Source of the DNA: Leptolyngbya sp. NIES-3755
Lineage (GTDB): Bacteria > Cyanobacteriota > Cyanobacteriia > Leptolyngbyales > Leptolyngbyaceae
Direction of reading: 5' to 3'
Assembly: GCA_001548435.1 (NCBI GenBank)
Contig: AP017308.1
Coordinates: forward strand, 503,030 to 567,029
Length of the DNA: 64,000 bases
Shown: piece by piece, positions 6,153 to 37,762 of the stretch
Layout of the letters: every line of letters begins with the position of its first letter
Position numbering within the stretch: the stretch's first letter is position 1
Position numbers and translations under genes: made by a program
The notes under the pieces: generated by a model
Seen by the model: only the letters and a program-made list of their open reading frames with translations
Databases searched by the model: none
Told to the model about the DNA's origin: nothing

Positions 6153-7493
6153 ATGAGTAACCAGGCTTTCCCAACTCGTCTGAAAATCGGACGCGCTTTG
6201 TCTCTCGCAGTCATGACACTCACTGTTGGATTGCTGGCTGCCGCCTGTCAAGAAGCCGCCCCACCCACCGGACAAGGCGGAACCGCATCTCCAGGGGGAA
6301 CCTCTCCTGCTGCAAACACTGGAGGCGGAGGCTTAAAGATTGGATCGCTCCTGCCTTCGACTGGAGATCTCGCCTCGGTTGGACAACAGATGACCGCGGC
6401 AGTTCCCCTACTGGTTGAAACCGTGAATCAGTGCGGTGGCGTGAATGGTCAGCCTGTGACCTTGGTTCAAGTGGATGACCAGACCGATCCGGCTGCGGGT
6501 GCAGAAGGGATGACCCGACTAGCAGAACGCGAACGGGTCGCAGGTGTCGTTGGCTCGTTCGCAAGTAGTGTTTCGACCGCAGCACTCCCGATCGCAGTTC
6601 GGAACAAAGTGGTGCTAATTTCTCCGGGAAGTACAAGCCCAGTGTTCACACAACAGGCGAAAGAAAACAAATTCCAAGGCTACTGGGCAAGAACGGCTCC
6701 ACCGGATACCTATCAAGCACAAGCGTTGGCAAAATTGGCGAGTGAGCGCAACTTGAAAACCGCAGGCACGATCGTGATTAACAATGATTATGGCGTGGGC
6801 TTTGAGCGGGAATTTGTCAAGGCGTTTACAGCACTCGGTGGCAAGATTACGAATGAGGCAAGACCGACTCGGTACGATCCCAAAGCTACCACGTTTCAAA
6901 CGGAAGCTGCGGCAGCGTTTACAGGGAATCCACAAGCCGTTGCAGCCGTCTTATATGCGGACACGGGAAGCTTGATTGTGAAGTCGGCTTATGAGCAAGG
7001 AAGAAGCCAGAATTCTCAATTCCTGCTCACAGATGGGGTTTACTCTCAGGACTTTGTGGATAAGGTTGGTAAAGGTCAGAATGGACAATCGATCCTCGCA
7101 GGTGCGCTAGGAACGGTTCCAGGAGCGAGTGGAACGGGATTAGCCGCCTTTACGAAACTGTGGGAAGAAAAACAGAAACGTCCTTTAGCGGCTTATGCGC
7201 CTCATGCTTGGGATGCTGCTGCGATTTTGGTGTTAGCCGCGCAAGCAGCGAAATCGAACACAGGGGAAGCGATCAAAAATCAGTTGCGAGAAGTGACTAA
7301 TGCGCCTGGAGAAGAGGTTTCGGATGTGTGCAAAGGGTTGGAACTGTTGCGTCAAGGTAGACAAATTAACTATCAAGGGGCAAGCGGCAATGTCGATATC
7401 GATGAGGCTGGCGATGTCGTGGGTAGCTATGATGTTTGGACTGTAGGACCAGATGGCAAGCTGAAAACGATCGGGAAAGTAAATCCGAGATAA
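6153..7493 (+). CDS. ABC transporter periplasmic substrate-binding lipoprotein, LivJ/NatB branched-chain/neutral amino-acid type (orphan; no permease adjacent)
   Basis: Lipobox LAAAC followed by a Gly/Pro-rich linker, then a type-I periplasmic binding fold (LKIGSLLPSTGDLASVG...GSFASSVS...). Confidence 0.7.
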   Translation: MSNQAFPTRLKIGRALSLAVMTLTVGLLAAACQEAAPPTGQGGTASPGGTSPAANTGGGGLKIGSLLPSTGDLASVGQQMTAAVPLLVETVNQCGGVNGQPVTLVQVDDQTDPAAGAEGMTRLAERERVAGVVGSFASSVSTAALPIAVRNKVVLISPGSTSPVFTQQAKENKFQGYWARTAPPDTYQAQALAKLASERNLKTAGTIVINNDYGVGFEREFVKAFTALGGKITNEARPTRYDPKATTFQTEAAAAFTGNPQAVAAVLYADTGSLIVKSAYEQGRSQNSQFLLTDGVYSQDFVDKVGKGQNGQSILAGALGTVPGASGTGLAAFTKLWEEKQKRPLAAYAPHAWDAAAILVLAAQAAKSNTGEAIKNQLREVTNAPGEEVSDVCKGLELLRQGRQINYQGASGNVDIDEAGDVVGSYDVWTVGPDGKLKTIGKVNPR

Positions 7494-29830: not shown

Positions 29831-30616
29831 ATGTCATTGACTCTCAAAATTGAAACTAACACCGTTCTCAAGCGTAAGCCGATTCAGTCTTCCGAACTCC
29901 CAGAGGATCAGAAGCAACCGATCGAGGCGGGCAGAGAATTTCAGATTGATTCATATACTATCGATCGAGGTCATGTCCGCTGCTTTTTGAGCAATGACAC
30001 GTTCAAGGGTACGAATGTTTGGTACGCTTTCGGCAAGCACGTGAAGATTTTCCGTGACACTCAAGTTTTTCCCCGCACCCTTCCCGCCTCAATTAAGCTG
30101 AATATTCCGTACAAGTCGCAGCGGGACAATGTTCTGAATCCTGATGGTGCTTGTAATGTCACCTCGATCGCGATGTGTTTGCGCTATCTCGGAGCGGCTC
30201 GTAAGGAAACGGCTGGACAGTTCGAGGATGAACTCTATAACTACACCATTCGTCGGGGCTATAGTCGCCACAATCCCTATGATCTGGCGAAGGTTGTTCA
30301 AGAGTATGGAATGCGCGATGAATTTAGAACAGATGCCACGATCGAGCAAGTTCGCTCTTGGTTAGCAGATGGTAATCCTGCTGTGATTCATGGCTACTTT
30401 ACTGATTTTGGTCACATTGTCGTGGCAGCGGGTTACGATCCGACGGGTTTTTTAGTGCATGATCCGTTTGGTGAATGGTACTGGTGGGGCTATGACCTGA
30501 ATGAGCCGAATGGCAACAATCGCAAAGGAGAGTACATTCACTATTCGTTCTCGATGATTGAACGGCTTTGTATTCCGGATAGTAACTTCTGGGTGCATTT
30601 CATCTCCAAGCCTTAG
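29831..30616 (+). CDS. C39-like papain-fold peptidase domain protein with N-terminal SH3-like region
   Basis: Cys/His pattern (GACNVTSIAMCL ... GH) similar to peptidase_C39-like domains. Confidence 0.45.
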   Translation: MSLTLKIETNTVLKRKPIQSSELPEDQKQPIEAGREFQIDSYTIDRGHVRCFLSNDTFKGTNVWYAFGKHVKIFRDTQVFPRTLPASIKLNIPYKSQRDNVLNPDGACNVTSIAMCLRYLGAARKETAGQFEDELYNYTIRRGYSRHNPYDLAKVVQEYGMRDEFRTDATIEQVRSWLADGNPAVIHGYFTDFGHIVVAAGYDPTGFLVHDPFGEWYWWGYDLNEPNGNNRKGEYIHYSFSMIERLCIPDSNFWVHFISKP

Positions 30617-30737: not shown

Positions 30738-30809
30738 GTTTGATTAGCTCAATTTGGTAGAGCAGTCGTCTGAAATCGATGTGTACAGGTTCGAGTCCTG
30801 TATCAAACA
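30738..30809 (+). tRNA. Aberrant tRNA-like gene (perfect acceptor, D and T arms; GAA in the anticodon loop, but the anticodon stem pairs poorly: 4 bp with an 8-nt loop). Possible pseudo-tRNA-Phe.
   Basis: Hand-folded: acceptor GTTTGAT/ATCAAAC, D-arm GCTC-AATTTGGTA-GAGC, T-arm ACAGG-TTCGAGT-CCTGT. The anticodon region GTCGTCTGAAATCGATG does not form the canonical 5-bp stem. Confidence 0.4.
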
Positions 30810-30811
30810 CC

Positions 30812-30884
30812 CGAAAGTTAGCTCAACTGGCAGAGCAATCGACTGAAAATCGATGTGTCGCAGGTTCAACTCCTGCACTTTCCA
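30812..30884 (+). tRNA. tRNA-Phe (GAA), CCA encoded
   Basis: Hand-folded: D-arm GCTC-AACTGGCA-GAGC, anticodon stem ATCGA/TCGAT with loop CTGAAAA, T-arm GCAGG-TTCAACT-CCTGC, acceptor CGAAAGT/ACTTTCC (1:72 C:C mismatch), then ACCA. Confidence 0.7.
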
Positions 30885-31217
30885 CCACCCTGCCCTGGGT
30901 TATCGGGCATCAGTTTAGGGAACTGACACTTTTGGTAATGGGAGAAATCCCTAGCGGTTCGAGTCCGTACTATTTCACTGCCCCGCAAGGTTCGTGTTCG
31001 GCTGAATTGGGTTCGCCTGATTCGGCAACAGTTGAAAGGCTTGCGCGATCGACATTCCCTTTTCGCTTGAGTATGTCTCTGTCGGGATTCCTGGCACAGC
31101 GTATTTGAGAGGCGACTCTCTTAATCCAGCGTTAAGGAAGCGATTGCCCGCTCTGGATCTGTGAACGCGAATGTTGCGGGGTTTTCAATTTTTGATGTAG
31201 TATATGTAGTATGACGA

Positions 31218-32768
31218 GTGGGTGAAGAGACGATGTTCAAAGCGTTCTACATCAAAGAGCGCGATCGCGGTGTTTTATACGATCGTGATGATTTCCAGCG
31301 AATTTTACAACCTGGAACGTATCGACGGTTGTGGGCAACTCGTTGGCGCGTGGTGAATTACGATCTCAATCAACCCGAAGCGAGAATTCCCGATCTAGAA
31401 TTCTTACTCCAAACTCATCGAGCCGAACTGGAATCGCATCTCGTTGTAGTACGCACTGCATTTAATGAAGTCGCGTTAGTCAAAGCGGGACAACAGTGGA
31501 TCAGTGTCGCTCCAAATCGATTGAAAGCATTTTGGCGTGGTTTTACAGAGATTGAAGTTCATCGCTTTAACCTAGATCAACAGCTTGAACTTCCGACAGA
31601 GCTAGTTCAACAAGTGCGAGGAATCGCGATCGACAATCTTCTAAAGTTCCAAGTTTCCGAAGCTGAAATCGGCTTGCTGTATGTGCAAGATAACTTTGTG
31701 CGTCCATTGGAAGCGGGAGAATATGCGTTCTGGACATTCAATCGCAAAGTTCAAGTCCGATCGCTGAGTAAAATTGTTCCAAATCCTCAGTTTCCCTTAG
31801 TCGATGTTTTGATTGATCAGCATCCCGACTTTGTTGCAACTTACTGTGAACTGGTGCAATTAACGAGCAATCAAACTGCGATCGTGCGTTATCAATCGAA
31901 AGCGATCGAACTGGTTCCCCCTTCGAGCCGCAAACTGTTTTGGAAAGGTGTGGAAATTGAAATCATCGATATTGAAGCTGAGTCAAAACTCCCTGTGCGA
32001 CTGGTTAAAGAACTGGTCACAGGCTCGATCGAGGTCGCGATGCTCAGTCACGAGTCATTACACACCTTAGAAGTTCCAGCACAGCACATTGGATTGCTCT
32101 ACTTAGATAGTGTGCTTCAAGAACCATTAGCAGCAGGAACTCATACTTGGTGGAAATTTGGTCGATCGATTAAAACCGAATCGCTTGATCTCCGTCTGCA
32201 AACGCTCGAAGTTTCTGGACAAGAAATTCTCAGTAAAGATAAAGTTCCGCTGCGTCTGAATCTCACAGCAGGCTATCGAATTGCTGATCCGATTCGTGCA
32301 AAGACAACGCTGATCGATATTTCGGGCTTTTTGTACAAAGAGCTTCAATTCGGCTTACGGTCTGCGGTCGGAACGCGATCGCTCGATCAACTGCTCGAAG
32401 ATAAAACTGCGATCGACACCACAATTTCAGACTACATTCGCGCCAAAGTAGTCGATTACGGGATCGAAGTAGAATCCGTGGGAGTCAAAGACATCATCTT
32501 ACCAGGAGAAATCAAAGCAATCCTTGGAAAAGTGGTCGAAGCTGAGAAAGCGGCTCAGGCGAATGTGGTACGTCGTCGTGAAGAAACGGCTGCAACTCGC
32601 AGTATGTTAAACACAGCGAAAGTGATGGAAGATAACCCGGTTGCTCTGCGTTTGAAAGAACTTGAAGTGTTAGAACGCATTGCTGAGAAGATTGAAAACA
32701 TCAATGTGAATGGAGGTTTAGAAAGTATTCTCACTGAACTGATCAAAATCAAAGGACAACCAAGCTGA
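31218..32768 (+). CDS. SPFH/band-7 (stomatin/prohibitin-like) domain protein with four N-terminal tandem repeat modules
   Basis: C-terminal SPFH core (KDKVPLRLNLTAGYRIADPIRA...KDIILPGEIKAILGKVVEAEKAAQANVVRRREE). N-terminal segments recur about four times (AFWRGFTEIEVHRF / AFWTFNRKVQVRSL / LFWKGVEIEIIDIE / TWWKFGRSIKTESL). Confidence 0.7.
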   Translation: MGEETMFKAFYIKERDRGVLYDRDDFQRILQPGTYRRLWATRWRVVNYDLNQPEARIPDLEFLLQTHRAELESHLVVVRTAFNEVALVKAGQQWISVAPNRLKAFWRGFTEIEVHRFNLDQQLELPTELVQQVRGIAIDNLLKFQVSEAEIGLLYVQDNFVRPLEAGEYAFWTFNRKVQVRSLSKIVPNPQFPLVDVLIDQHPDFVATYCELVQLTSNQTAIVRYQSKAIELVPPSSRKLFWKGVEIEIIDIEAESKLPVRLVKELVTGSIEVAMLSHESLHTLEVPAQHIGLLYLDSVLQEPLAAGTHTWWKFGRSIKTESLDLRLQTLEVSGQEILSKDKVPLRLNLTAGYRIADPIRAKTTLIDISGFLYKELQFGLRSAVGTRSLDQLLEDKTAIDTTISDYIRAKVVDYGIEVESVGVKDIILPGEIKAILGKVVEAEKAAQANVVRRREETAATRSMLNTAKVMEDNPVALRLKELEVLERIAEKIENINVNGGLESILTELIKIKGQPS

Positions 32769-33004
32769 TTGCTGTATTTATTGGAGAAAAGCTCGCACCA
32801 TTATGTCTGTTTGATGGGTTTTTTCACTCCGATTCATTCCGGGGCGGTTGAGCAACGAAGCGAAGGGACTTTCAGAAGCTTTGTCAGTCAATCAGCTAAT
32901 CCAACCTAGACAAATGGCTAGGTCAAGTTCTACCCGAATCTCCGATGCTGCTTAGATAAGGATTACGGCATTCTGGAAACAGGAAATCGTTTACCCCTAA
33001 CTCT

Positions 33005-33958
33005 ATGACAGATCCAACTTTAGCCTTTGCAGCGTTGGCGTTCTCAAATCAGCTATCGGATGCAGTAGAAAAAGCATCTCGCTCGATCGTTGCCGTCAAT
33101 GCCCGAAGAAGACGCACCTCTAGTGGAATTCACTGGCGCAAAAACCTGATTATTACAGCGGATCACACGATCCAGCAAGACGAAGAAATTAACGTGATCT
33201 TGCCCGATGGTCGATCGACATCCGCCTCGATCGCTGGACGAGATTCGACAATGGATCTCGCTGTTCTCCGCCTCGAAACGGACGACCTTTCTACAGCAGA
33301 AATTGCCGATTCAACTCAAGCGAAAGTCGGTCAAATTGTACTAGCAGTTTCCAGAAGTGCAGAAGGTTCGACCAGTGCCAGTATGGGCATTATCAGTTCG
33401 ATTAGCGAAGGGTGGCAGCGTTCCGAACACCATCATCGACATGGGAGACGATCGAGAGCCGCGATCGCACAATTAATTCAACCTGCACTGATGATGTATC
33501 CAGGCTTTTCTGGAGGTGCATTGATCAATCCTGAAGGGCAAGTACTGGGAATTAATACAGCGGGTGCGCGTCATTCTCCGTTAACGATTCCAGCAGCATT
33601 GGTTGATCGAGTGTTAGATCAATTGCTGCAAACTGGACGAATTGCGCGGGGTTATCTTGGTTTAGGAATGCAGGCGATTCGATTACCGGAAGCACTTTAT
33701 CGATCGCTCAATCTTTCAAATCCGGGTGGCGTAATTGTTGTGAGTGTCGAACCGGGTGCGCCTGCGGACAATGCGGGAATGTTGCTTGGGGACATTTTGG
33801 TTGCATTGAATGAAACGACGATCGAAGATGTCACCGATGTTCACGCGATGCTGAGTTCTGAACAAGTCGGGCAGCCATTGACCGCAAAAATTGTTCGGGG
33901 TGGGGTGCTGACGGAAAAAACCATCGTTGTTGGAGAAAGACCAGGGAGGAATGGTTGA
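33005..33958 (+). CDS. HtrA/DegP-like trypsin-fold serine protease with C-terminal PDZ, no signal peptide
   Basis: Catalytic H (TADHTI), D (DLAVLRL), S (GFSGGALI); PDZ (GYLGLGMQAI...). A His/Arg-rich insertion (EHHHRHGRRSR) sits before the Ser motif. Confidence 0.8.
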   Translation: MTDPTLAFAALAFSNQLSDAVEKASRSIVAVNARRRRTSSGIHWRKNLIITADHTIQQDEEINVILPDGRSTSASIAGRDSTMDLAVLRLETDDLSTAEIADSTQAKVGQIVLAVSRSAEGSTSASMGIISSISEGWQRSEHHHRHGRRSRAAIAQLIQPALMMYPGFSGGALINPEGQVLGINTAGARHSPLTIPAALVDRVLDQLLQTGRIARGYLGLGMQAIRLPEALYRSLNLSNPGGVIVVSVEPGAPADNAGMLLGDILVALNETTIEDVTDVHAMLSSEQVGQPLTAKIVRGGVLTEKTIVVGERPGRNG

Positions 33959-34800
33959 TGTTGCTTACAGAAAGCTTTGCGGAAATTGTAGAGCCGTTAC
34001 GTCGATCGACGGTGCAAGTTCGAGTGGGCAGACGCGGATTTGGATCAGGCGTGATTTGGCGATCGAATGGTTTGATCATCACAAATGATCATGTTGTACA
34101 GGGACAAGATGCAACTGTAGAACTCTCAGACGGTCGAACTTTCTCAGCCAAGATTCAAGGTCGAAACTCACAGCGTGATTTAGCTGCACTCCAAATTAAT
34201 GCAACTGATTTACCTGCTATTAATGTTGGAGATTCGGAGCAGCTACGAGTCGGAGAATTAGTGTTTGCTGTGGGAAATCCGGGCGGAAGAGTTGGGGCAG
34301 TCACAGCAGGAATTATTCATACGATCGAGTCAAAGAATGCTTGGATTCAAGCGGATATTCGATTGGCTCCGGGTAATTCTGGTGGTCTGTTAGCAAACGC
34401 GAAAGGCGAAGTGATTGGCATCAATACCATGATCATGAATGGTAAAGGGCTTGCTATTCCGAGTAAAACTGTCGAACAATTTCTCAAGAACATGGGCAAC
34501 AATCCTTATTTGGGTGTTGAACTTCAGTTTGTTCGGGCGATTATTGCTCGTCGTCCTGCGTATGGATTGTTGATTACTGCGATCGAGCCGAATAGTCCAA
34601 TCGAAACCGCAGGATTGCTGCCCGGAGATATTCTGATTGGAGTTCGTGGCACAGTGTTCCAATCGCAGAATGAACTTTTCTGGATTCTGCAAAACTCGAA
34701 TGTGGGCGATAGTTTACAGATTGAGTTCCTTCGAGGTGGGCAACATTTGAGCCGAAACGTTATCCTAGAAAGCCGCCACACTGAGCCACAAGCCGCATGA
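33955..34800 (+). CDS. HtrA/DegP-like serine protease with PDZ, no signal peptide (ATGA overlap with upstream paralogue)
   Basis: Catalytic H (TNDHVV), D (DLAALQI), GNSGG; PDZ domain. Confidence 0.8.
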   Translation: MMLLTESFAEIVEPLRRSTVQVRVGRRGFGSGVIWRSNGLIITNDHVVQGQDATVELSDGRTFSAKIQGRNSQRDLAALQINATDLPAINVGDSEQLRVGELVFAVGNPGGRVGAVTAGIIHTIESKNAWIQADIRLAPGNSGGLLANAKGEVIGINTMIMNGKGLAIPSKTVEQFLKNMGNNPYLGVELQFVRAIIARRPAYGLLITAIEPNSPIETAGLLPGDILIGVRGTVFQSQNELFWILQNSNVGDSLQIEFLRGGQHLSRNVILESRHTEPQAA

Positions 34801-35402
34801 TCCGCGTGTTCATTATTGCTCAATCGAGCGTGACTCAAGCAGGACTTACAGCGCTTCTAACTCCTGATTTAGACATCGCTGGTAGTGCAATTCGTCCTGC
34901 TTCGATTTCTTCTGCAATTAAGGCTTCGGAAGCAACTGTAATTTTGGGTGAACAGGACGCGATCGCTTCGCTGCACCCAGTGTTCGCAGAAGTTTCCGAG
35001 GTTGAAATCCCGATCGTAGTGTTGCTCGATGATAGTTCTGCGATTTCAGAATTGTTGCAATCGGGCATTCGTTCCATTTTGCTGAATGATGTATCCCGCG
35101 AACAACTGATCGAAGCAATTAAAGCTACTTCAGCAGGTTTAACGGTAATACATCCTGATTTGATAGAATCGATGTTGATTCCAACGGTACGATCGACTGA
35201 ACCTGCCCCATTAACGCCGCGTGAGATTGAAGTATTGACCATGCTAGCGGAAGGATTGGGGAATAAAGCGATCGCACAACATCTCAATTTGTCGGAACAT
35301 ACAGTGAAGTTTCACATTAGTTCGATTTTTAGCAAGTTGGATGTTTCGAGTCGAACTGAAGCTGTGATTTTAGGTGCAAAACAGGGATGGATTTTGCTCT
35401 AA
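34797..35402 (+). CDS. LuxR/NarL-family transcriptional regulator with atypical (non-phosphorylatable-looking) receiver domain
   Basis: C-terminal LuxR HTH (LTPREIEVLTMLAEGLGNKAIAQHLNLSEHTVKFHISSIFSKL). The N-terminal REC-like fold lacks the acidic DD pocket (QSS) and the conserved Lys. ATGA overlap with the upstream protease gene. Confidence 0.75.
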   Translation: MIRVFIIAQSSVTQAGLTALLTPDLDIAGSAIRPASISSAIKASEATVILGEQDAIASLHPVFAEVSEVEIPIVVLLDDSSAISELLQSGIRSILLNDVSREQLIEAIKATSAGLTVIHPDLIESMLIPTVRSTEPAPLTPREIEVLTMLAEGLGNKAIAQHLNLSEHTVKFHISSIFSKLDVSSRTEAVILGAKQGWILL

Positions 35403-37762
35403 GCTTCTTGCACGAGCCGTAAGGTCTGAGGTTCTGTCTGCACAAAGCGCTTCCGAAGTTTGTGAATCGCTTCGATCGCATGTTGATGTTTCGCTTGATC
35501 GCCTTGTACGGAAAAGAGCCAAGCCGCTTCTTTCAAATCTCGAATTGCACCTGTCTTATCATTCATGGTGCTACGAACTAAACCGCGATGAAAGTAAGCT
35601 ACTGCATTCTGAGCGTCGATCGTTAACATTGCCGTGAAGTCATCGATCGCGCCTAATTTATTCTCAAATCTCATTCGCGCCAGTCCTCGTTGCACATAAG
35701 CATTCAAACAAGTGGGATCAACTTGAATTGCATAGCTAAAATCCTCGATCGCATTCACTTTCTCGCCAATTTGTAACCAAATCACACCGCGATTGCAATA
35801 CAGCGTTGGATTTCGACTATCCGCGAGAATGGCACGATTGAGATCTGCGATCGCGCCCGCATGATCTCCAAGTTCAAACTTGACTAATGCTCGATTGTTA
35901 TAAGCAATGCTGTGCTTCTCATCAAGTTCGATCACATTGGAATAGTCCTCGATCGCGCCTTGTCGATCACCAAGTTCATATCGAGTGGTGGCACGATTCA
36001 GATATGCGATCGCACTTTTCTCTAACACCGGATGATCAAAGCGATCGATCAAACCTTGAATCACAGTTAAATTCTGAGTCCGAAGCCCGATCGCCATTTC
36101 AGGAAATGCAGTACTCGCAGTAGCAACCGGATGCAGTCCGAGAATACTATAGCTAGAATCGCAAACCAGGAAATTTTCGCTAGTTCCTAACACTTTGAAG
36201 CGGAATTGATTGGGATAGTTGCGCTTTAGTTGAGTTAACTGTCCGAGGATCTTTCTGAGGAAGTTCTTTGAAATCGAAGGCGTTTCTCGATCGTGAATAT
36301 ATCGCGCCTGTTGTCCAGCTTGCTCGTCTCCCAAATGTCCCCAACCGATATCGAGCGAACCTCCTCGATCGAGAAATTCCTGAAAACTCTGGATCAATTC
36401 ATCATCGAGCGTAGCGCGATCGGGATACGGGAAAACGACAATTACTCTCGATCGGGCTGATTCCAGTGCTTCTTTCAATACAGTCCGCGTGTTCTCAAAC
36501 GGATTATCATTTTGCGACAGATTGAACAACAATTCATACTCTGATTTAGTAGAAGAAGTCACTAATTCGGCAAGCTGATTTTCCGTCACCTCCAAACGCG
36601 AGGTCAAATACTTAATCTGAGTTTGGAGAGCACTAGCATCGAGCATTTCAGGCAAGCGACCCATCCATTCGGTTAAATGCTTCTGTTGTCGATCGAGATT
36701 CTGAGCGTATTGCTGCACACTATCAAACTGTTCTTGCAAATGGCTTAAATGTCCATTGATCATGGTTTGCATTTCAGTGTGCAACTCAGCTAAATTTGCT
36801 CCACTTGAGAAAGTATCGAGCCGATCTTCAAGCTGTTTCACGGTTGCTTGTAGCTGTTCAACATCAACCATCGGAGTAGCGGGATGTCCAGTCGCTACCC
36901 AAGTCGATAAAGTATCCATCTGCTTTCGCATGATTGTGTTGACCGATTTCAAAGGAGCAACGGTTTGTTCTAAGTTCTGATGCTGTTGTCGGATTCTCTC
37001 AATTTCAGCCATCAGTTTCGCCATATCGCGTCGAGAAACCAAGTCGCCAACAACCTTCACCAATCCATCTACTTCTTGCTTGAGTGCAGTCGCATCAAAG
37101 GGCTGAGGTAAACTATTCAACCGACGATGAATCTGATGAATTTCATCCTGCATCACACGCGGAATCACTTGTTTCTGACTCGTTGCAACTTCTGTGAGTC
37201 TGGTTTGTAGCTGTGTCACTTCAGACCGCAGTTCTGCGATCGCATTTTCCGCTCCTTCGACTCGATTGTTCGTTGCCAATCGTCCCAAGTACTGTGAAAC
37301 GGTCGCCATTGATTCCGATAGCTGCGAGTATCTAGTTTTGAGATACGCCAATTCTTTTTCAAGTTGGTCATAATCCCGACTCTCGATCGCACCAATCCGA
37401 TGAGAAATATTCTGTTGTAATTGTGCGATCGAGTTATCGTGCCGCTGTTGAATCGTTTTGCGAACACTGGCAAGATCCACAAAGCTAGGAAGAGTACGAA
37501 CCTGTTGATCGAGCACTTTAATCTCGTCAGATAAGCGCTGGTCGAGATGTGTAATGCTAGTATTTGCCGCTTTCAAGGTCTCTTTATCGAGACGGCGACG
37601 GTTCATCACATTCAGTAACAATAAGCACGAGACAGGGGCAGCCGTAAATGCTAATTGTTGGGAGGCGATCGACGCGATCGAACCGAAACCTGAGCCAATG
37701 AGTACCAAGTATTCAAACAGGCTGAGCCATTTTGCATTCTTCATATTGCCCCTGAATCCCAC
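35399..37762 (-). CDS. Membrane-anchored coiled-coil protein with central uncharacterised globular region and C-terminal TPR array (about 8 repeats)
   Basis: N-terminal TM helices, long heptad-rich region, C-terminal TPRs (AYNNRALVKFELGDHAGAIADLNRAI...). Confidence 0.6.
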   Translation of the reverse strand: MGFRGNMKNAKWLSLFEYLVLIGSGFGSIASIASQQLAFTAAPVSCLLLLNVMNRRRLDKETLKAANTSITHLDQRLSDEIKVLDQQVRTLPSFVDLASVRKTIQQRHDNSIAQLQQNISHRIGAIESRDYDQLEKELAYLKTRYSQLSESMATVSQYLGRLATNNRVEGAENAIAELRSEVTQLQTRLTEVATSQKQVIPRVMQDEIHQIHRRLNSLPQPFDATALKQEVDGLVKVVGDLVSRRDMAKLMAEIERIRQQHQNLEQTVAPLKSVNTIMRKQMDTLSTWVATGHPATPMVDVEQLQATVKQLEDRLDTFSSGANLAELHTEMQTMINGHLSHLQEQFDSVQQYAQNLDRQQKHLTEWMGRLPEMLDASALQTQIKYLTSRLEVTENQLAELVTSSTKSEYELLFNLSQNDNPFENTRTVLKEALESARSRVIVVFPYPDRATLDDELIQSFQEFLDRGGSLDIGWGHLGDEQAGQQARYIHDRETPSISKNFLRKILGQLTQLKRNYPNQFRFKVLGTSENFLVCDSSYSILGLHPVATASTAFPEMAIGLRTQNLTVIQGLIDRFDHPVLEKSAIAYLNRATTRYELGDRQGAIEDYSNVIELDEKHSIAYNNRALVKFELGDHAGAIADLNRAILADSRNPTLYCNRGVIWLQIGEKVNAIEDFSYAIQVDPTCLNAYVQRGLARMRFENKLGAIDDFTAMLTIDAQNAVAYFHRGLVRSTMNDKTGAIRDLKEAAWLFSVQGDQAKHQHAIEAIHKLRKRFVQTEPQTLRLVQEA

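Follow-up and report, generated by a model that had tools for sequence, protein, structure and literature searches.

Do an SPFH protein, two HtrA-type proteases and a LuxR-type regulator that are encoded side by side in the cyanobacterium Leptolyngbya sp. NIES-3755 belong to a single functional module, and how is the regulator controlled? Textbooks present HtrA proteases as enzymes of extracytoplasmic quality control and response regulators as phospho-switches. In the stretch of 64,000 nucleotides analysed here (contig AP017308.1, positions 503,030 to 567,029 of the forward strand; hereafter, the window), a gene for an SPFH (band 7) protein is followed on the same strand by the genes of two signal-less PDZ proteases, P1 and P2, and of an orphan regulator, LuxR. 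An original prediction, made without any database search, had joined the four genes in one array in which the SPFH protein partners the proteases. The comparison of neighbourhoods makes it highly probable that the region consists of two unrelated units, of which P1(-P2)-LuxR is the conserved and separately controlled module. The first unit would comprise a pair of tRNA-like genes and the SPFH gene; the second, the real module, would be the operon P1-P2-LuxR, which stands by itself and has a conserved operator of its own upstream.

The SPFH gene and the protease operon in other genomes

The neighbourhood of SPFH was sampled at 80 orthologue loci from different cyanobacterial species, with 10-kb flanks that were searched with P1, P2 and LuxR. 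The three genes together were found beside SPFH at none of these 80 loci from other species, and a lone generic HtrA gene lies 4-5 kb upstream of SPFH at three of them. From the other side, a metagenome scan anchored on LuxR collected 80 loci (regulators 36-50% identical; locus GC content 0.44-0.78, median 0.61), and SPFH was found within 6 kb of the P1-P2-LuxR trio, or of the P1-LuxR duo that replaces it in some genomes, at none of about 65 loci. No conserved protein partner of SPFH came to light either: the largest flanking family is present at 14 of 84 loci, which fits lineage synteny.

The close relatives are also informative (loci are designated by L numbers where needed). Uma2 and nadC come after the SPFH orthologue that is 88% identical (L081/L085), with the trio some 30 kb off on the same contig; after the one that is 90% identical (L084) come a Rep_1 gene and nadC. 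In Leptolyngbya NIES-2104, SPFH and P1 are separated by an opposite-strand gene for a 1159-aa TPS-domain protein. In the nearest of the relatives, Leptolyngbya sp. AN03gr2 (L171; P1 96% identical), SPFH residues 1-467 and the tRNA-like pair are deleted and only the last 44 SPFH codons remain (L171 6105-6236); a different 210-aa membrane open reading frame (ORF) occupies the place of SPFH, and P1-P2-LuxR and the downstream genes are intact. SPFH and the protease operon are thus adjacent only in the NIES-3755 lineage. The original prediction had named the joint conservation of the four genes as a point on which it stood or fell; they are not conserved together, and the four-gene module is rejected from the SPFH side and from the trio side alike. 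Nor is the partnership of SPFH with the proteases supported, since the trio is missing from all 80 SPFH loci and SPFH itself has been lost in AN03gr2.

An SPFH-domain protein that adjoins protease genes brings to mind HflK/C-FtsH and stomatin-NfeD. The window differs from these systems: the neighbouring position of the genes is not conserved, a transmembrane (TM) anchor is missing from the SPFH protein, and neither NfeD nor FtsH is present; conserved linkage and a membrane anchor, the two traits of an SPFH-protease system, are both absent.

The P1(-P2)-LuxR operon

P1-P2-LuxR is a tightly coupled conserved unit in which P1 is always present and P2 is optional. Look-ups anchored on P1 returned the trio at every locus (L085, L086, L087, L168, L169/170 and L171), and P1-P2-GerE arrays with unrelated flanks occur in Leptolyngbya relatives, in Kovacikia minuta (P1 59% identical) and in metagenome-assembled genomes (MAGs), one of which (L168) is labelled Candidatus Tectomicrobia. 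The LuxR-anchored scan yielded about 45 loci with P1-P2-LuxR and about 22 with P1-LuxR; in at least 15 of these duos, the sequence extends upstream by more than another 1 kb and contains no further protease gene. A protease lies directly upstream of LuxR at every locus with at least about 900 bp of upstream sequence, and the 19 apparent exceptions (14 with LuxR only, five with P2-LuxR) all end at a contig edge. The 4-nt overlap between P2 and LuxR is kept in 35 of 43 trios. Clustering of the ORFs adjacent to the operon at about 80 loci revealed no flanking family common to more than five loci and no histidine kinase among the flanking families. Since the architectures are constant and neither a flanking family nor a kinase is shared, the conserved unit is P1(-P2)-LuxR alone. 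The operon is self-contained and has been inherited vertically and widely, across very different bacteria. A recent horizontal acquisition was considered for the window and rejected, the GC profile being flat.

P1 and P2 are paralogues (32% identity, E-value 7e-44), both with Trypsin_2 and PDZ_2 matches, as the original prediction had supposed. Each presents the trypsin-fold domain with catalytic triad and the C-terminal PDZ domain of the HtrA/DegP (S1C) family: the triad is H54/D84/S169 in P1, with the serine in a GFSGG motif, and H45/D74/S141 in P2, with the canonical GNSGG motif. Their closest solved relatives are DegP-like, DegQ, HhoA and DegS proteins, and both fall far below the curated subfamily cut-offs of TIGR02037 (177 and 206 bits; cut-off 416) and of the NCBIfam model NF041521, HhoA_HhoB_HtrA (147 bits for P1 and 183 for P2; cut-off 450). 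The signal peptide or TM anchor that is typical of the extracytoplasmic HtrA/DegP enzymes is missing from both. Their N-termini are not hydrophobic (maximum KD15, on the Kyte-Doolittle (KD) scale, below 1.0), and neither ORF can be extended upstream. The claim that the proteases lack a signal or TM segment holds in the window and throughout the family by a crude KD hydropathy test (not SignalP), which found no hydrophobic N-terminal segment in 57 P1-type and 44 P2-type proteins (101 homologues), even when the longest ORF was taken. Because export signals are missing in all of these proteases, they are predicted to be cytoplasmic family-wide.

The two types are conserved in different ways. All 45 P2-type proteins retain H/D/S and GNSGG, but seven of them are without a PDZ domain. 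In the P1 type it is the PDZ domain that is never missing: its carboxylate-binding loop, RGYLGxG, is DegS-like and has the Gly in all 58 proteins, but the nucleophile serine has been lost from seven of the 58, among them proteins of two-gene loci such as L095 and L109. P1 is the invariant partner of the regulator, and P2 is an accessory member that is always catalytically intact. The serine-less P1 proteins belong to the duos L095, L099 and L109 and the trios L102, L110, L117 and L164; their motifs read AAAGG, GAVGG, NLEGG and similar, the PDZ binding loop is kept and the regulator is still linked. P1 of the window also carries a His/Arg-rich insert, EHHHRHGRRSR, at residues ~141-151 (33425-33457), in the loop before the GFSGG motif. 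This insert was tried as a family feature and set aside, being confined to the window, L085 and L086 and absent from the other 55 P1-type proteins.

LuxR aligns end to end with VraR, DesR and DevR. Its AlphaFold2 (AF2) model (pLDDT 82.5) consists of a (βα)5 receiver, a disordered linker and a four-helix GerE domain (residues 141-195). The signature positions of the receiver are replaced in the window: the acidic pair DD by A8/Q9, the acceptor D by E52, T by L77 and K by N97. The receiver had been foreseen to lack the acidic pocket and the conserved lysine, which is true in the window, and the receiver is non-canonical throughout the 85 members of the family. In these, the acidic pair is replaced (Ala at the A8 position in 73/85, Ser at the S10 position in 76/85), the acceptor residue is Asp in 37 members, Glu in 36 members and Ala or Val in a further 11, and the conserved lysine has given way to Arg in 63/85, the window having Asn. 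The model, taken with the alignment, indicates that the receiver keeps its fold without the Mg2+-binding acidic pair family-wide. Compared with a NarL/FixJ response regulator, LuxR has the GerE output domain and lacks both the receiver residues and an adjacent kinase. The protein ends in a hydrophobic tail, GWILL (…QGWILL), and a glycine followed by four hydrophobic residues forms the end of 84 of the 85 members. Membership of LuxR in MadR, the Enterococcus cell-envelope response regulator, was rejected, since the score of 88 bits (cut-off 300) reflects generic similarity only.

The operon also has a conserved upstream region. A block of ~110 bp upstream of P1 is common to three Leptolyngbya relatives despite their differing upstream neighbours, and DNA homology with the relatives resumes exactly at position 32904 of the window. 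The sequences before P1 in 49-55 diverse loci are strongly enriched in the k-mers CTAGCCA and CCTAGCC. For instance, the 200-bp regions preceding P1 at 53 loci contain 18 copies of CCTAGCC[AG] (1.74 per kb), as against 10 copies in 451 kb elsewhere in these loci (0.022 per kb), an upstream enrichment of 78-fold. The operator-like motif (ACCTAGCCA...) is found in a single orientation, at -50 to -127 from P1; its family consensus is ACCTAGCCAtTTGGCgGATGc, and a second unit is often present 22-23 bp upstream. The palindrome of the window, ACCTAGACAAATGGCTAGGT, is unique in the 64 kb. Given that the recognition helix region of LuxR is almost invariant across the family, we infer that the motif is the LuxR operator, for which the site form would be ACCTAG-N8-CTAGGT, and that LuxR may bind it and autoregulate the operon.

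The features of the region are collected in Table 1. All the predicted genes and domains are present, according to Pfam/NCBIfam: Band_7 in the SPFH gene (E 7e-28), Trypsin_2 and PDZ_2 in P1 (E 2.5e-24 and 1e-12) and in P2 (E 4e-30 and 1.5e-10), and GerE in LuxR (E 3.5e-22), in which the same search gave no significant Response_reg match. Proteins of the NIES-3755 genome match SPFH, P1 and LuxR at 100% identity, the first being annotated as 'band 7 protein'. The gap between SPFH and P1 exists as described and measures 236 bp, not 237 bp, and an intrinsic-terminator check downstream of SPFH gave a weak hairpin with a U6 tract (z = -0.14). The ATGA overlaps reported for the protease and regulator genes apply only to the P2/LuxR junction; between P1 and P2 the sequence reads TGATG (1-nt overlap) if P2 starts at ATG, or TTGA if it starts at TTG.

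Table 1. Coordinates of the tRNA-like genes, the SPFH gene and the P1-P2-LuxR operon in the window.
Feature	Position	Strand	Remarks
tRNA-like gene A	30738-30811	+	ARAGORN, Rfam tRNA
tRNA-like gene B	30812-30887	+	anticodon GAA
SPFH (slipin-type) gene	31233-32768	+	511 aa from ATG; GTG start at 31218 possible
Four N-terminal β modules of SPFH	31233-32030	+	hhalign, AF2 secondary structure
β module R1	31233-31418	+	
β module R2	31419-31616	+	
β module R3	31617-31820	+	
β module R4	31821-32030	+	
SPFH core, then long C-terminal helical segment	32070-32696	+	
Operator-like palindrome ACCTAGACAAATGGCTAGGT	32904-32923	+	82-101 bp upstream of P1
Degenerate second operator unit TCTACCCGAATCTCCGATGC	32929-32948	+	family consensus CCTAGCCAtTTGGCgGATGc; read by eye
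P1, signal-less HtrA-family (S1C) protease	33005-33958	+	one PDZ, 317 aa
P2, signal-less HtrA-family protease	33958-34800	+	one PDZ, 280 aa from ATG; alternative start 33955
LuxR, orphan NarL/LuxR-type regulator	34797-35402	+	
LuxR pseudo-receiver, residues 1-128	34797-35180	+	E52 codon 34950-34952
LuxR GerE helix-turn-helix (HTH)	35208-35369	+	disordered linker before HTH

Some loci of the family have additional genes beside the trio. In the Leptolyngbya relative L085, a stand-alone GerE-only protein of 92 aa (6320-6598) is encoded ~400 bp upstream of the trio. In two non-cyanobacterial MAGs (L168 2956-4579 and L169 9597-11219), YdjM and DoxX genes follow the trio on the same strand; YdjM is a membrane-bound metal-dependent hydrolase family, and the two genes are possible regulon members in that lineage. 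On the other side of the operon, the LuxR gene of the window converges with a minus-strand gene (35399-37762), the stop codons overlapping within 4 nt. The encoded protein (787 aa) combines a long coiled coil with a TM-like segment at the N-terminus and TPR repeats at the C-terminus, and the synteny of the gene is limited to the closest relatives L086 and L171, being absent at L085 and L087.

The SPFH protein and its tRNA-like pair

Orthologues of the SPFH protein are 50-70% identical across cyanobacteria, from the Nostocales to Chroococcidiopsis and Gloeothece. The protein has no TM segment (maximum KD19 1.12) and no hydrophobic N-terminus. Its AF2 model (pLDDT 80.8) comprises four 5-stranded β modules, the SPFH core and long helices. 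The β segment at the N-terminus had been described as repeated four times; four modules are indeed present, and they are not equal copies. Profile comparison with hhalign gave the pattern A-B-A-B-A, in which R1, R3 and R5 resemble one another (E 1e-6 to 3e-9), as do R2 and R4 (E 2e-8), and in which the similarity of A to B is not significant; R5 is the start of the canonical SPFH domain. The N-terminal modules are hence two copies of a bipartite A-B unit, and homologues of ~660 aa (P0006, P0010) have one extra A-B unit and six modules.

When the model was compared with solved chains using Foldseek, only major vault proteins aligned over the full length (E 1e-12 to 1e-9, 575-627 columns, with a low TM-score). 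Both are soluble, and the order of an array of small β-repeat modules, an SPFH 'shoulder' and a long helix may be common to the two. The Pfam Vault profile gave no match on SPFH residues 1-280, even at E-values up to 10. The model is thus suggestive of a fold that is in part vault-like. Sll1021, considered as the Synechocystis counterpart of the SPFH protein, was set aside since it is classed as a flotillin.

The SPFH gene is preceded by two tRNA-like genes. They had been read as a duplicated tRNA-Phe, which does not stand: the two are different genes, with distinct acceptor stems and, in gene A, a 6-nt anticodon loop. Gene A (Rfam tRNA, 56 bits) has the acceptor stem GUUUGAU/AUCAAAC, conserved across species, and is called by ARAGORN as 'tRNA-???' with the anticodon 'ga'. 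Gene B (63 bits) has the conserved acceptor stem GAAAGU/ACUUUC and an anticodon that differs between species. Both fold into the cloverleaf. In other species a head-to-tail tRNA-like pair likewise lies upstream of SPFH on the same strand, at a median distance of 554 bp. ARAGORN finds at least one tRNA near SPFH in 77 of 86 loci and at least two in 61, and an nhmmer profile of the pair detects it at 77 of 84 SPFH loci, that is, at 77 of the 81 with at least 1 kb of upstream sequence. The same profile has no hit at 85 unrelated loci and, in the window, only the site at 30738-30887; all 155 tRNA-like copies are co-oriented with SPFH.

The arms and the anticodon loops of these genes follow opposite courses. 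Acceptor stems, D-arms and T-arms are conserved across species, with compensatory changes at 32 of 41 base pairs. The anticodons, by contrast, are of 25 kinds in A and 19 in B across 61 pairs, CAU being the commonest and CUA being included, together with twelve loops of other than 7 nt (6 or 8 nt) and six anticodons with A34. By these comparisons, the tRNA-like genes do not behave as ordinary orthologous tRNAs. The pair could partner a vault-like particle as its RNA, act as a leader or in processing, or serve as a decoy. A literature search for an SPFH-linked tRNA-like pair found nothing. A phage origin was also considered and discarded, since the scan of viral contigs with the pattern gave only two unrelated phage tRNA-Asn genes.

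Other observations concern the same surroundings. A third tRNA-like unit in the window is a T-arm remnant only (E 0.03). In several Nostoc genomes (L029 8036-9109; also L024, L026, L033 and L034), a retron-type reverse transcriptase with YADD and VTG motifs lies between the pair and SPFH, and so does a third tRNA-like gene, with the anticodon UAU. Upstream of the pair, the window has a Peptidase_C39_2 (papain-like) gene at 29831-30616, in a position that is kept in the Leptolyngbya relatives L084, L086 and L171 and that was not found in 80 other SPFH loci. The slot between this gene and P1 appears variable.

Control of the regulator

Two unrelated units, with an operon that is autoregulated by LuxR and a LuxR that is set by P1, is the explanation we favour, and we give it somewhat better than an even chance. 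LuxR would bind the upstream motif and autoregulate the operon, and its activity would be set by the obligate partner P1 and not by phosphorylation. P1 would be mainly a PDZ-based sensor or adaptor, probably holding LuxR by the invariant hydrophobic C-terminus, and proteolysis would come from P2, or from P1 itself in the two-gene versions. Proteins that expose their C-termini, for instance when unfolded or truncated, would rival LuxR for the PDZ domain and so move the regulator between bound (or cleaved) and free states. The outcome would be a cytoplasmic analogue of DegS-type stress signalling. Control by P1 is proposed because LuxR cannot be a conventional phospho-acceptor and no kinase is linked to it; that it should be based on binding, with P2 as the dedicated protease, is proposed because the PDZ pocket of P1 is intact, dead P1 proteins occur in duos and the C-terminus of LuxR is invariant. 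Control of the regulator through its protease partner is plausible. Taken by itself, the control of LuxR specifically by P1 is a tentative proposal, to which we give less than an even chance.

It is important to note the points that count against this explanation. About 44% of the family keep Asp at the acceptor position, and some unconventional phosphorylation is possible in these members. The GΦΦ C-terminus is partly a general feature of GerE domains, as the alignments with VraR and DesR indicate, and for this reason the argument from the C-terminal tail is weak. The motif is found with at most one mismatch in only 35 of 55 loci, as compared with ~11 in shuffles, and LuxR is a candidate, proposed by us, for the protein that binds it. 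Likewise, we only infer that P1 binds or cleaves LuxR. As for the sample, the LuxR-anchored scan is blind to P1-type proteases without a regulator.

The main rival, unlikely in our estimate, is a plain autoregulated regulon without protein contact. LuxR would then be an ordinary autoregulating transcription factor and the proteases merely its targets, forming a cytoplasmic protein-quality-control regulon; the regulator is perhaps constitutively active by a Glu 'phosphomimic', or its pseudo-receiver perhaps binds a small ligand. The conserved upstream operator agrees with autoregulation, 73 of the 85 members have Glu or Asp as the acceptor residue, and htrA genes under the control of regulators are well known, such as CpxR-degP and CssR-htrA. 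Nonetheless, this rival leaves unexplained why LuxR is never without P1 directly upstream over a GC range of 0.44-0.78, why the 4-nt translational coupling is near-universal, and why a dead P1 is retained in duos such as L095 and L109.

We consider rather improbable a broader reading in which the real partner of SPFH is the tRNA-like pair. A soluble vault-like shell protein would then work with two tRNA-like RNAs of conserved structure, the anticodon loops of which can vary freely or are under pressure to vary; the two might, for example, form a ribonucleoprotein particle, or the RNAs might serve as tRNA mimics or decoys. In the same reading, P1(-P2)-LuxR would separately form a DegS-like pathway of the cytoplasm, with direct gating of a DNA-binding pseudo-response regulator by a PDZ protease.

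An acquired anti-phage or stress island integrated beside a tRNA gene, the second part of the original prediction, is very improbable. There are tRNA genes nearby, and PADLOC gives weak domain matches (the trypsin fold of RT-Protease_XI/LmuA, and the HTH of CARF and CasR), but these are generic folds far from any system model (best E 2.4e-13, with the protease part of RT-Protease_XI), the GC content is flat across the region (0.44-0.49), the housekeeping genes that flank the module are unrelated from one lineage to another, and the tRNA-like pair is the companion of SPFH (77/81 loci), neither an att site for the trio nor an integration scar. The least probable of all is the single SPFH-P1-P2-LuxR module, in which an SPFH scaffold would partner the HtrA proteases and sense membrane damage, with proteolysis of the regulator: the genes are adjacent on one strand in the window, nearly so in NIES-2104, and SPFH-protease partnerships exist elsewhere, but the counts from both sides (0/80 and 0/~65), the trio without SPFH in AN03gr2, the gene inserted on the opposite strand in NIES-2104, the separate conserved block upstream of the trio and the SPFH protein without a TM anchor all oppose it.

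Returning to control by P1, the nearest precedent is DegS-RseA-σE of E. coli, in which a single-PDZ protease of the HtrA family likewise turns the binding of exposed C-termini into a transcriptional response. The PDZ loop of P1, RGYLGLG, resembles that of DegS, which is among the solved homologues (E 1e-21 to 1e-23). DegS differs in being membrane-anchored and periplasmic, in acting on an anti-sigma factor and in not being operon-linked to its regulator, whereas P1 and P2 are predicted to work in the cytoplasm and are linked to a DNA-binding regulator of the LuxR type. An HtrA-type protease is also genetically tied to a factor of the response-regulator type in MprAB-PepD of Mycobacterium tuberculosis, CpxAR-DegP and CssRS-HtrA, and in mprA-mprB-pepD the regulator and the protease share one operon. 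Each of these systems combines a histidine kinase with a phosphorylatable receiver and exports its protease; P1-P2-LuxR has no linked kinase, a degenerate receiver and no export signal.

On the side of the regulator, the likeness is to the atypical/aspartate-less receiver (ALR) regulators of the NarL/LuxR class, in which a receiver fold is joined to a GerE HTH and the residues for Asp phosphorylation are missing (Maule et al., 2015, PMC4395418). LuxR is similarly an orphan with this fusion and without those residues, and its family is set apart by the loss of the acidic pair (A-x-S), the D or E acceptor and the obligate synteny with a PDZ protease. The ALR review (PMC4395418) does not describe the module, and no paper was found on an A-x-S receiver family with PDZ-protease synteny. 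As to the proteases, the Deg proteases HhoA, HhoB and HtrA of Synechocystis are S1C enzymes with one PDZ domain (Cheregi et al., 2016, PMC4877387). HhoA is a solved homologue of P2 (E 1e-34) from the same S1C family, and P1 and P2 differ from the three in scoring below the NCBIfam cut-off and in having no N-terminal signal or TM region; the review of cyanobacterial Deg proteases (PMC4877387) does not describe the P1(-P2)-LuxR module. A literature search found nothing on it either, which is weak evidence since the searchable literature is incomplete. The trio or duo is a real, widespread and apparently uncharacterised variant of HtrA-plus-regulator systems.

The neighbourhood analysis removes the tempting story of an SPFH-protease partnership from this locus. 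In its place there is, on the one hand, the very consistent link of a partly vault-like SPFH protein to hypervariable tRNA-like genes and, on the other hand, a defined module of two or three genes that is found in cyanobacteria and, apparently, in many soil bacteria. With its partners, its DNA site and its natural catalytically dead variants now listed, the hypothesis is directly testable. Should P1 indeed gate LuxR, the module would represent a novel mode of pseudo-receiver control and the equivalent, in the cytoplasm, of DegS-type signalling.

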